Shown: in pieces, positions 7,600-10,244 of the stretch
Layout: each line of letters opens with the position of its first letter
Position numbering within the stretch: the first letter of the stretch is position 1
Source of the DNA: Escherichia coli
Lineage (GTDB): Bacteria; Pseudomonadota; Gammaproteobacteria; Enterobacterales; Enterobacteriaceae
Direction: 5' to 3' (one strand)
Assembly (NCBI RefSeq): GCF_017348835.2
Contig: NZ_CP072313.1
Length of the DNA: 36,351 bases
Program-made: the position numbers and the translations under genes
Notes under the pieces: generated by a model
The model's database searches: none
Seen by the model: the letters and a program-made list of their open reading frames with translations, nothing else
What the model was told of the DNA's origin: nothing

Positions 7600-8148
7600 T
7601 ACAACATCCATTATTAAAAGCGATGTTGTTCCCGCCCTTTGGGCGGGGGCGGCGGCGCTTTTCAGTGATGGGTTGGGCGCTGTGGCTGAGTATTTGCAGC
7701 GTTTTTTGTAGGAGGGTTGGAGGGGCTTTGTTTTTCATCGGGCAGAAGTTCATATGCCCGCCGCGAAGCGGTGGGAGGTACTTTTATATTCTGAGCGGCG
7801 CGGCTTTAGCCGCTGCAAGCGAAGGCATTTTTGTGATTATCCACAGTTGTTTCAAAGATAAATATTTTCCCTGCGGCGAAGCAACGCTGGGGATTAAAGA
7901 ACAGGGGTTAAGAATATATTGCAGGTTTGATCTTCTATGTTTGCTGCTTTCTGAAGTTATTCGTTTGCGGTTTTTTGTGAATAACCGAAGGCGGTTTAGC
8001 TCCGATACCCGATTGTGGCCATCAAAAAACTGTCAGAGCGGGACAAAATGAAAAACGGTCGTCAAAAATGAGGAATTTCATGAAATGCAGGCAACACGAA
8101 AAGCCCCGAAGGGGCTGAAGAGAGTGCCGATTGTATCAGGCAGCTAAA
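7600..8148. other. candidate replication origin region downstream of repA
   Basis: consensus DnaA box TTATCCACA at 7837-7845; GC-rich then A/T-rich blocks; position matches IncFII-type plasmids where the origin lies 3' of repA. Confidence 0.4.
8097..8118 (-). terminator. rho-independent terminator after repA
   Basis: minus-strand RNA forms GCCCC-UUC-GGGGC followed by UUUU, about 30 nt after the repA stop. Confidence 0.5.
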
Positions 8149-9204
8149 CTAGTGGGGTGGAGAAGCTGTCAGGGCCAGTTCAAGCTGACGTAGATCCCTG
8201 GCTACCAGTTGCTCTAATCTTTCTTTAGTGCACCAGTACGCTTCGTCCGGCGACATACGCTTCAGAATAAACCGTGCAATTTCGTTTCGCTGTTCATCAT
8301 ACGGCAGTTTTGCAAGGCGATTGGCACGTTTGCGCTTTGCTGCTTTCTCTCGTCGGAACTTGATGGCATCGAGAGAACGCTGCGCATACCAGCGTTTACG
8401 AGCCGAGTGAACAGAGATTTCCTCGCCCTCGCGGATAACGCCTTCTTTAATCAGTTGCAGACGGATTTCACTTTCTGCAAGGCGCTTACGTTGCTGTTCC
8501 TGAAGTTTCACCAGATCAACTCCCAGCATTTTCCAGCCAGTTTCGGTGATCCAGACGTATTTCGGCAGTCGCTGGCGGGATTCACGGTCCCATATCGTCT
8601 TTTCTGACGTTCCCAACGTGCCAAAGGAAACCTGCTCTGCCAGCAGACGGGAAAGGCGCGATACTGTGACTGCGGTTTCAGGAATAACGTTTCCCTTACT
8701 GTCTTTTGGGCTTATTTCTTCTGCCAGGCGGGAGACAGACATGCCGACAGTGTGCAATCCACGATCACAAAAACTCACAAGTACAACCCATATTGCGTCA
8801 AGCAGCCGCTGTTTCTCCGGTCGGAATTTATATTTGCGACCGACACTCTGACGTTTCAGTACATAAAATGGATGCAACGACATATGCATTCTGAGTGTGT
8901 ACTGACCAGTGACCGGGTCTTTTTTAACGAGACGATTGTAAGCGTGGCCCAACTGTCCGCCCAGCGCCTTATAGCTGTCGGGACGGAACCAGGCTGGATT
9001 CTCACACTTTGGCTTAGTGGAATGTTCACCACGGCGGCGCTTCGTGCTCCGTTTTTCCGGTTCAACCAGAAATGACGTGGCCCTGCCCGATTCGTAATCC
9101 TCCCAGAAAAGGATTTGCTCTTCGGGAGACAGTTCACTCCAGTGTAATGAAGGCCTGTTCAGGGAAGCCATAAGCAATCGCTTATGGCAGAGCTTGATTC
9201 GCAC
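8149..9204 (-). CDS. repA: plasmid replication initiator RepA (IncFII/IncI-complex RepA family)
   Basis: overall resemblance to RepA1/RepZ-type initiators; GTG start at 9204, alternative ATG at 9171; terminator and DnaA box downstream, antisense-RNA-like hairpin upstream. Confidence 0.7.
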   Translation of the reverse strand: MRIKLCHKRLLMASLNRPSLHWSELSPEEQILFWEDYESGRATSFLVEPEKRSTKRRRGEHSTKPKCENPAWFRPDSYKALGGQLGHAYNRLVKKDPVTGQYTLRMHMSLHPFYVLKRQSVGRKYKFRPEKQRLLDAIWVVLVSFCDRGLHTVGMSVSRLAEEISPKDSKGNVIPETAVTVSRLSRLLAEQVSFGTLGTSEKTIWDRESRQRLPKYVWITETGWKMLGVDLVKLQEQQRKRLAESEIRLQLIKEGVIREGEEISVHSARKRWYAQRSLDAIKFRREKAAKRKRANRLAKLPYDEQRNEIARFILKRMSPDEAYWCTKERLEQLVARDLRQLELALTASPPH

Positions 9205-9264
9205 AGTGCATTTTTACACCGGACGATATTGAATAATGAGGAAAGCATCATGTATACTGTCTTC

Positions 9265-9346
9265 CAAGGGATTTCCCCTGCCCCCATTAAACTTTGATCG
9301 GCCTCTGCCAAGAAACGGATGCAAAGTTAATGGGGGTTTGTTTTTT
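9265..9346 (+). ncRNA. candidate antisense copy-control RNA (CopA/Inc-RNA-like) in the repA leader
   Basis: plus-strand promoter -35 TTGAAT (9229-9234), 18-bp spacer, -10 TATACT (9253-9258); 15-bp stem (9281-9296 with 9322-9336) followed by T-run 9337-9346. Confidence 0.45.
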
Positions 9347-10061
9347 ATGGCTTCATGGAATCTTTCAACTCCTGCCATACACCTGAATGCCTTATGGCGC
9401 ATCCTACCTTTATCCCCTATGACGGGGACCAAATTTCTCAAATTTAAGCGAAGATCAAAAAGGATCAACACCGAATGCCGCTTAATATACCTGTAGCCCT
9501 CCGATTTGAAAAGTGTTTGTCGTGACGCTCATTCCACCAATCTCGCCAAATCAGCACATCCGGCACTGCCGATGAAACAATCAAAAAGTATTTTTTTTCG
9601 CCACTTCTTTAATTTTTAGAATATTAGATCGTGAATGATCTATTCAACGATCTATCATACCAATATAAAAGCTGATTTTAGAATTTTATACTTTTTATTT
9701 TGATTTATGCGGGATAATAGATCGCCTAAACCACCTTGAACGATCTATTGTACTGGTTTAAAGTCTCCATGTTGAAGTTTTCCGCTATCAGCAGAACGCC
9801 CGAACAAGGCGTTATTCGTACGCTCTTTAACACCCCTGGACAGCGGTAATTGCCTGAAGCCCTGGCATGAGGAGGATTAATTGTGTGCAAAAAACAGCAC
9901 TTGCTGACAATGTTCAGTGTGGGCTACGTATAGAGTGACGTGCCGCGCCATCTGACAGGTAACGACTCATTTTTACAATTTTCAACATAGTTAATTCCCT
10001 TTATCAAACTCGATTCCCTGAAAGGGGGATTAACTGTGTACGAAAAGTACAGGAGATAATA

Positions 10062-10244
10062 ATGAGAGATGATAATTATCTTGATGGATTAATTGCCGGA
10101 GGTACTGTTGCAATTTCTTTTGCGGGACTGATTCTGTTAATCGTGAGTAATTTGAAAAACGAAGCTGAGACAGAAAAAACTGCATTTTATGAATGGGCCG
10201 ATTCACACTGTGAAAAAATTGAAAAACATTTTAAATGTTACTGA
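10062..10244 (+). CDS. small membrane protein (60 aa)
   Basis: AGGAGA Shine-Dalgarno 6 nt upstream; one hydrophobic helix (GLIAGGTVAISFAGLILLIV). Confidence 0.45.
   Translation: MRDDNYLDGLIAGGTVAISFAGLILLIVSNLKNEAETEKTAFYEWADSHCEKIEKHFKCY

Follow-up and report, generated by a model that had tools for sequence, protein, structure and literature searches.

How is replication initiation controlled at the repA locus of Escherichia coli contig NZ_CP072313.1 (assembly GCF_017348835.2), and to which family of plasmid control systems does the region upstream of this initiator gene belong? We addressed this question in a stretch of 36,351 nucleotides (nt), hereafter the window, in which repA lies on the minus strand. 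A preliminary description had proposed that a countertranscript and a translationally coupled leader peptide control repA, and had likened the arrangement to both IncFII and IncI-complex replicons. Control of that general kind is supported by homology, by a match to the Rfam family PK-repZ and by covariation, and the likeness to the IncI complex holds as well; the likeness to IncFII is not supported, as there is no CopA match, no copB and a single main stem-loop. The pseudoknot, which is the defining trait of I-complex control, had been missed. Positions 9159-9512 very probably constitute an I-complex-type copy-number control module for repA, of the ColIb-P9 repY-repZ or pMU720 repBA type. The region is a divergent, rare and sub-threshold member of the PK-repZ / I-complex group and represents a known mechanism, not a new one.

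The elements of this module, their homology to those of IncI1/K/Z, the RNA structures and the covariation of the pseudoknot are all directly observed. The leader is collinear with those of IncI1/B/O (L007) and of the K/Z type (L022), from the -10 element of the repA promoter through the stop codon of the leader peptide. The collinear elements are, in order, the -10 block GGTATATT, a conserved block, the base of stem-loop I (AAACCCCC...GGGGG), the antisense promoter, the leader-peptide ATG, the distal pseudoknot site with stem-loop III (C(U/C)C(U/C)GCCAUAAGCGA..GCUU(A/G)UGGC) and the leader stop. The initiator encoded downstream belongs to the RepZ/RepA (I-complex) family and shares 74% of its amino acids (aa) with the IncI1/B/O RepA over 343 aa. 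Moreover, the only significant Rfam match in 9100-9600, reported at an E-value threshold, is PK-repZ (RF01087; gathering threshold 44 bits), which aligns along the full model to minus-strand positions 9184-9341 (30.6 bits, E = 8.2e-5). IncI1/B/O scores 194.5 bits with this model, while among relatives of the window leader L004 passes with 55 bits and L003 and L006 reach about 35.5 bits; the canonical IncI2 leader gives no PK-repZ match at E <= 10. The CopA model (RF00042) likewise has no match in 9100-9600 at E <= 10, and the same model does detect CopA in L009.

The pseudoknot is composed of two strands in the repA leader:

Positions 9303-9310, minus strand: pseudoknot 5' strand, UGGCAGAG, which lies in the stem-loop I loop and is also the predicted kissing site of the antisense RNA; complementary to 9192-9185 and covarying with it.
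Positions 9185-9192, minus strand: 3' (distal) strand of the pseudoknot, CUCUGCCA, directly 5' of stem-loop III and overlapping it.

The strands form 8 base pairs (bp) between the loop and a site directly 5' of the rep initiation region. Alignment A2, anchored by hand on the conserved flanking motifs UUG(G/A)C and CA(U/A)A, covers 13 replicons that include IncI1/B/O, the K/Z type, two IncL/M, relatives from Salmonella, Enterobacter and Pantoea, and two metagenomic variants. In this set 91.3% of the cells of the helix are paired, as against 32-50% after a shift of the 3' partner by 1-3 columns, and four of the eight pairs have changed on both sides. The covariation score is 0.325 vs 0.125 +/- 0.03 in shuffles, a value reached by none of 500 shuffles.

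The same coupling is seen on a smaller scale within the lineage of the window. Alignment A1 comprises four leader variants that are 90-93% identical, and their differences are nearly confined to two parts, the top of stem-loop I (63% of its columns are variable) and the distal site with stem-loop III (30%, compared with 5-10% elsewhere). Such a focus of variation on the loop top and the distal site is the pattern expected of a specificity determinant. The four variants pair as follows:

Window: loop UGGCAGAG, distal strand CUCUGCCA, 8 bp.
L006: loop UGGCAGAA, distal strand UUCUGCCA, the last pair being A-U in place of G-C.
L003: loop UGGCAGAG, distal strand UUCUGCCA, the last pair being G.U.
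L004: loop UGACGG, distal strand CCGUCA, with two double changes relative to UGGCAG/CUGCCA.

This within-lineage covariation draws on few independent sequences, because the searches for variants gave few: complete E. coli genomes yielded no leader variants beyond the four already obtained from PLSDB, and a metagenome scan added two single-nucleotide-deletion variants (L017 and L018). In a cross-pairing energy matrix, the loop-distal duplex of the window (-15.1 kcal/mol) is the best pairing in its row, and the window, L004 and IncL/M are set apart from non-self partners; the UUGGCG types are not separable from one another in this matrix, because G.U pairs are tolerated. The loop hexamer is UUGGCA in the window and UUGACG in L004, which is not the exact 5'-rUUGGCG-3' motif named in the ColIb-P9 work, and the U-turn-like UUGR start is kept in both. 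We treat the UUGGCG hexamer, with its GGCG/CGCC pairing, as a marker of the IncI1/B/K/Z subgroup and not as a requirement of the mechanism class, because IncL/M, an accepted pseudoknot-type system, also deviates from it (UUGGCC). Judged by its loop, the element would not be assigned to IncI1, B, K or Z.

Opposite stem-loop I, the plus strand is predicted to encode the antisense RNA:

Positions 9229-9258, plus strand: putative promoter of the antisense transcript (Inc RNA / RNAI-like), from a consensus scan and with hexamers positionally conserved in alignment A3.
Positions 9265-9346, plus strand: predicted antisense RNA of ~77-83 nt, with a short 5' hairpin, a main stem-loop at 9281-9336 and a U-run at 9337-9346 as intrinsic terminator.

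The promoter given in the preliminary description (TTGAAT, 18 bp, TATACT) is indeed present, with hexamers at 9229-9234 and 9253-9258 that make up 9/12 consensus matches. Promoter-like sites as such do not exceed chance here (3 in the region vs 1.6 +/- 1.2 in shuffles). The candidate is nevertheless more credible because both hexamers recur unchanged at the homologous position of the IncI1/B/O leaders, where the spacer is 17 bp (TTGAAT-17-TATACT). Its -10 element adjoins the leader-peptide ATG on the opposite strand. The hairpin described earlier is right as to its 15-bp stem (arms 9281-9296 and 9322-9336 on the plus strand, with one bulged A) and its T-run (TTTGTTTTTT at 9337-9346), whereas the supposed 25-nt loop folds into an upper stem with a small apical loop. 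An 88-nt plus-strand RNA folds at -33.7 kcal/mol (z = -4.5), which none of 200 shuffles equalled. The RNA, with its single main stem-loop, would probably run from ~9265 to ~9346; its geometry agrees with that of the Inc RNA of IncI1, whose gene lies ~100 bp upstream of the rep start (PMC4705826). At the sequence level the antisense gene thus has its own predicted promoter and intrinsic terminator, and its product is fully complementary to the rep leader.

On the minus strand, the two coding sequences of the module are placed differently from the earlier proposal:

Positions 8149-9171, minus strand: repA, replication initiator of 340 aa, starting at ATG 9171-9169 according to the Prokaryotic Genome Annotation Pipeline (PGAP) start in pDETEC35 and homology to the IncI1 GUG.
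Positions 9159-9251, minus strand: open reading frame (ORF) of the leader peptide, a RepY/RepB homologue of 30 aa (MMLSSLFNIVRCKNALCESSSAISDCLWLP), from ATG 9251 to TGA 9161-9159, with likeness to IncI1 RepY.

The mechanically called repA ORF spans 8149-9204 and begins with a GTG that had been taken as the start codon. This GTG 9204 is ruled out by the annotation and by homology: in the near-identical plasmid pDETEC35, PGAP sets the repA start at the equivalent of ATG 9171, and in the leader alignment this ATG occupies the homologous position of the IncI1 GUG start. The minus-strand leader ORF that had been proposed to end at 9214 fares no better. It corresponds to an 85-aa ORF at 9214-9471 which, like GTG 9204, exists mechanically only; it runs through stem-loop I and its frame is broken in all three divergent relatives, where 23 (L003), 20 (L004) and 36 (L006) codons are open before a stop although the leaders are 90-93% identical. 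We also rejected as a gene the 86-aa plus-strand ORF at 9236-9496, which is not conserved and has a length of only 17, 30 or (frame-shifted) 68 aa in the relatives.

The short ORF at 9251-9159, on the other hand, begins shortly 3' of stem-loop I and extends a few nt into rep. The end of its stop codon lies 13 nt beyond the A of the repA ATG, and IncI1 RepY (MKPYQRFNPVQCINTRHNRSAISDSLWQV, 29 aa) has the end of its stop at exactly the same distance from the initial G of the rep GUG. Both have the same relative frame and a common C-terminal half (...SAISD.LW... tail), and a 3-nt deletion in L004 leaves the frame intact. For annotation, the repA start therefore belongs at 9171 and the leader peptide at 9251-9159. 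The start codon itself is ATG in all six members of the window lineage and GTG at the homologous site in all seven other pseudoknot-type leaders examined, and the weak rep initiation signal with a GUG start codon is hence not found here. GUG-to-AUG mutants of ColIb-P9 rely less on the pseudoknot and show weaker repression by Inc RNA (PMC4705826).

Three stem-loops are found in the repA mRNA:

Positions 9281-9336, minus strand: stem-loop I, the antisense target, with apex CUUGGCAGAG; from single-sequence folds and RNAalifold.
Positions 9240-9265, minus strand: stem-loop II, in which GGAAG (likely the leader-peptide Shine-Dalgarno sequence, 9265-9261) pairs with CUUUCC and the leader ATG lies in the loop; from the minimum free energy fold.
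Positions 9167-9188, minus strand: stem-loop III, GCCAUAAGC-GAUU-GCUUAUGGC, which hides the repA AUG together with half of the distal strand of the pseudoknot.

RNAalifold on the six sequences of alignment A4 gave four hairpins, namely these three, which are also found by single-sequence folds, and one inside the leader ORF. Stem-loop I appears in the folds of 12 out of 12 replicons despite differing stem sequences. Stem-loop II occupies columns 88-114 of A4 and has pairs changed on both sides relative to IncI1/KZ, while stem-loop III, the hairpin that sequesters the start codon, keeps nine pairs in all six sequences. At the first base of the start codon the pair is U-A in the window and U.G in IncI1/KZ; one may speculate that the U-A pair offsets the stronger AUG start.

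Two further features are located upstream in the leader:

Positions 9484-9512, minus strand: candidate promoter of the repA mRNA, TTTTCA-17-TATATT, from a promoter scan and with a conserved -10 block.
Positions 9372-9414, minus strand: the most conserved 5' leader block, AUGCGCCAUAAGGCAUUCAGG...AUGGCA, invariant in alignments A1 and A3 while the loop of stem-loop I changes.

The -10 block does not vary among the window, L004, IncI1/B/O and the K/Z-type leader, and repA transcription is predicted to start near 9477, which would give a leader of ~306 nt. The conserved block (44 nt) is 90.9% identical to plasmids of ~55-115 kb; the two of these that were examined both have an I-complex K/Z-type leader, and one is typed IncK2/Z. 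The block also holds GCGCCAUAAGGC, which resembles the distal pseudoknot site of IncI1, CGCCAUAAGCG. As an alternative partner for the loop it was rejected, since it is invariant although the loop of stem-loop I changes. Just upstream of the candidate repA promoter there is an AT-rich cluster of the motif TAGATCR, with five of the eight sites of the whole window lying in both orientations within 123 bp (9625-9747). A GATCTA-rich stretch is found at the equivalent position in canonical IncI2, and the cluster may possibly represent Dam/SeqA or regulator-binding sites.

Taken from the Asano 2014 review (PMC4705826) and transferred by analogy with ColIb-P9 and pMU720, the following steps would describe transcription, the antisense RNA with its ends, translational coupling and the regulatory outcome. 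The repA mRNA would begin near 9477 with its repA AUG hidden in stem-loop III. Translation of the 30-codon RepY-like ORF, with termination of the ribosome 13 nt inside repA, would melt stem-loop III and free CUCUGCCA (9192-9185), which could then pair with UGGCAGAG (9310-9303) in the loop of stem-loop I. The resulting pseudoknot would hold the repA start site open, so that the terminating ribosome could initiate repA. In ColIb-P9, translation and termination of the leader peptide expose the sequence 5' of the rep start and the pseudoknot keeps the initiation site open (PMC4705826). A constitutive antisense RNA of ~80 nt (plus strand, ~9265-9346) would kiss the same loop and compete with pseudoknot formation, and with extension of the duplex it would also block the ribosome-binding site of the leader peptide. 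The Inc RNA of ColIb-P9 acts in the same two stages, with a quick block of the pseudoknot upon kissing the loop and a later block of the leader-peptide Shine-Dalgarno sequence (PMC4705826). Synthesis of RepA would thereby fall as copy number rises, and the loop and upper stem would set incompatibility specificity. The control region should be in use, because repA is the sole replication gene annotated on a near-identical plasmid of 36.9 kb.

Several points weigh against assigning the region to the I complex. The PK-repZ score of 30.6 bits lies below the gathering threshold of 44, the loop reads UUGGCA instead of the canonical 5'-rUUGGCG-3', and the AUG start could make control quantitatively different or leakier. 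In addition, the pseudoknot alignment was anchored by hand and contains several closely related sequences, and the module is known here from its sequence, with predicted ends for the antisense RNA. It is nonetheless improbable that the region is instead an IncFII-type system as in R1/R100, in which a CopA-like RNA would block a Tap-like leader through simple translational coupling and no activating pseudoknot would form. Genuine CopA/Tap/CopB leaders do stand before the same RepA family (L009, L012 and L013), both systems have a leader ORF that overlaps the start of repA, and the natural AUG could lessen dependence on the pseudoknot. However, PK-repZ matches in 9100-9600 where CopA has no match at E <= 10, and no copB/repA2-like ORF or annotation lies upstream, either among the ORFs of the window or in the annotation of the near-identical plasmid. 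Furthermore, the antisense RNA has one main stem-loop and not two, the leader peptide is RepY-like and not Tap-like, and the covariation between loop and distal site would be unexpected of functionless pairing.

Control of the canonical IncI2 type, as in pHNSHP45, would involve an antisense RNA of ~108 nt, the 19-aa RepR leader and the ProQ/FinO protein PcnR acting on a hairpin at the leader start, with no pseudoknot (PMC8053102). MOB-suite calls IncI2 on near-identical plasmids, 96.7% identity to IncI2 extends over the RepA body and the origin region downstream of it, and pS19_141-b, a member of the lineage, encodes PcnR under the same protein accession as an IncI2 plasmid. Against this, the leader has no detectable similarity to IncI2 above position 9144, the IncI2 leader itself has no PK-repZ match at E <= 10 and reportedly has neither a pseudoknot (PMC8053102) nor an RNAI homologue (PMC10286972), the best tblastn hit to PcnR in the window has E = 0.86, which we do not count as a homologue, and the annotation of the near-identical plasmid includes no ProQ/FinO gene; IncI2-type control is accordingly highly improbable. 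It is also hard to credit that the hairpin, promoter and ORFs are products of chance or a decayed relic, or that the 86-aa plus-strand ORF at 9236-9496 is the real gene. Counts of promoter-like sites alone do not exceed those in shuffles, and both long ORFs do exist mechanically, but the fold has z = -4.5, the elements have I-complex homologues and covarying pairing, the 86-aa ORF is not maintained in relatives (17, 30 or, frame-shifted, 68 aa), and the plasmid has no annotated replication gene other than repA. The I-complex-type module is thus the reading that we retain.

The I-complex-type leader and the initiator that it precedes appear to have different histories, as judged from a sharp junction inside repA:

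Positions 9140-9148: mosaic junction at repA codon 10 (CACTGG), with 96.7% nt identity to IncI2 below it and no detectable similarity above it.

The similarity to IncI2 spans at least 8000 to 9144 and then ends abruptly, and comparison of the leader with IncI2 above 9144 gave no similarity even at word size 7. RepA is 96% identical to that of canonical IncI2, 74% to that of IncI1/B/O and 43% to that of IncL/M. L004 parts from the window sequence at the same junction, and in total the cassette is fused at this CACTGG codon to three RepA bodies: an IncI2-like one (window), a second that is 72% identical to it (L003 and L006) and an unrelated 292-aa RepA of the IncFII family (L004/L028, pS19_141-b). 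The plasmid with the IncFII-family body also carries hok/sok and has the same PcnR protein accession as IncI2 plasmids. Other mosaics of control region and initiator were found in L022 (K/Z-type leader with an IncFII-family RepA) and L009 (CopA/Tap leader with an I-complex RepA), and such mosaicism was reportedly noted long ago for IncZ. Some ~35 nt past the repA stop, within the block shared with IncI2, there is a terminator-like hairpin (AGCCCC-UUC-GGGGCU followed by UUUU; 8098-8116, minus strand), whose position recalls that of the CIS-region terminator downstream of repZ in ColIb-P9.

The lineage seems to be a rare one. About eight E. coli plasmids of 32-45 kb match a region of 1.7 kb at 97-100% identity, and just 11 of 5426 complete E. 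coli genomes contain the leader, in which it is always plasmid-borne; one scan each added five metagenome contigs and one GTDB contig. Near-identical plasmids are typed by MOB-suite as IncI2 or left untyped, and a literature search with the plasmid names and the RepA accession gave no match. Judged from L027 (NZ_CP103482.1), the backbone of the window includes a VirB-type type IV secretion system, a type IA topoisomerase, Hha, H-NS, ParA and a PHD/VapC toxin-antitoxin pair. This type of backbone resembles that of IncX plasmids, although the replicon is of the I-complex/IncI2 family and its rep gene is the sole one annotated there.

Because replicon tools rely on RepA or on known RNAI amplicons, they label these plasmids of 35-45 kb as IncI2 or leave them untyped. 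Incompatibility and copy number are here determined by a divergent module of the PK-repZ type, and therefore the predicted compatibility behaviour differs from the plasmid label. We tentatively raise the possibility, which we consider rather less than an even chance, that the cassette (promoter, antisense RNA, RepY, pseudoknot and the first 10 codons of repA) is a self-contained, exchangeable specificity unit recombined at a fixed codon-10 junction, in which the U-A pair of the AUG possibly compensates so that a strong start stays repressible. If so, the lineage would serve as a natural experiment on which elements of the pseudoknot switch are indispensable, and one or more untyped incompatibility specificities would be hidden under the 'IncI2' label. 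The cassette is naturally devoid of a GUG start and a UUGGCG loop, both regarded as important in the literature on ColIb-P9. The natural compensatory variants (A-U for G-C; UGACGG/CCGUCA) and the natural AUG also bear on the requirements of the ColIb-P9 switch.

Elsewhere in the window, the only Rfam match at gathering level is AgrB (RF02891; 29631-29716, plus strand, 61.9 bits). AgrB is an antisense regulator of DinQ-like type I toxins, and a DinQ-like toxin gene, dqlB, is annotated in the equivalent neighbourhood of the near-identical plasmid pMB9635_3. A 24-nt direct repeat with 83% identity was also observed, AGGAGGATTAATTGTGTGCAAAAA at 9870-9893 and AGGGGGATTAACTGTGTACGAAAA at 10023-10046 (both plus strand). 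Each copy resembles a ribosome-binding site followed by GTG, and the second precedes a 60-aa ORF at 10062-10244.

Compared with known systems, the module shares with IncFII R1 (CopA/CopT-tap-repA) an antisense RNA, a leader peptide needed for repA translation and a related rep superfamily, but R1 has no activating pseudoknot, and its two-stem-loop CopA and CopB repressor gene have no match in the window. Canonical IncI2 (pHNSHP45 and R721; RepR-antisense RNA-PcnR) is alike in the RepA body and downstream origin block (96.7% nt identity) and in having an antisense RNA and a coupled leader peptide; its leader is unrelated, lacks a pseudoknot and uses PcnR, whereas that of the window is of the PK-repZ type, with no PcnR found. 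The canonical IncI2 leader (L002 3680-3725, minus strand) forms, at the corresponding relative position, a hairpin AAAACCCCC...GGGGG whose loop contains GGCAG, the core also present in the window loop; no complementary distal site was seen near the repA start of that leader. IncL/M pMU604/pOXA-48 (PK-repBA, RF01089) likewise has pseudoknot-dependent coupling and a loop that deviates from UUGGCG, UUGGCCGG, which is paired with CCGGCCAA so that the distal site compensates. It differs in a RepA that is only 43% identical, in an upstream repC, in its Rfam family and in a leader that can be aligned with the window only at the base of stem-loop I.

The closest counterparts are found within the I complex. 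IncB pMU720, IncK and IncZ (RNAI-repB-repA) belong to the same mechanism class, and the 44-nt block is 90.9% identical to plasmids with K/Z-type leaders, which also stand before IncFII-family RepA bodies (L022) in parallel to the mosaicism of the window. The specificity loop and upper stem differ, and those plasmids keep UUGGCG and GUG. From ColIb-P9/R64 (IncI1; PK-repZ, RF01087) the window differs in its Rfam score (30.6 bits, below threshold, vs 194.5 for IncI1/B/O), its AUG instead of GUG start with U-A instead of U.G in stem-loop III, an antisense promoter spacer of 18 instead of 17 bp, a leader peptide of 30 instead of 29 aa and an upper stem of stem-loop I that is unrelated in sequence. 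The loop is UUGGCAGAG where IncI1 has UUGGCGGA, and the distal U of the window matches this change (A-U replaces G-C). The two systems are nevertheless alike in the order and spacing of their elements, from the promoter -10 through the leader stop at +13, and in having a homologous distal site, the RepY tail and RepA proteins that are 74% identical.

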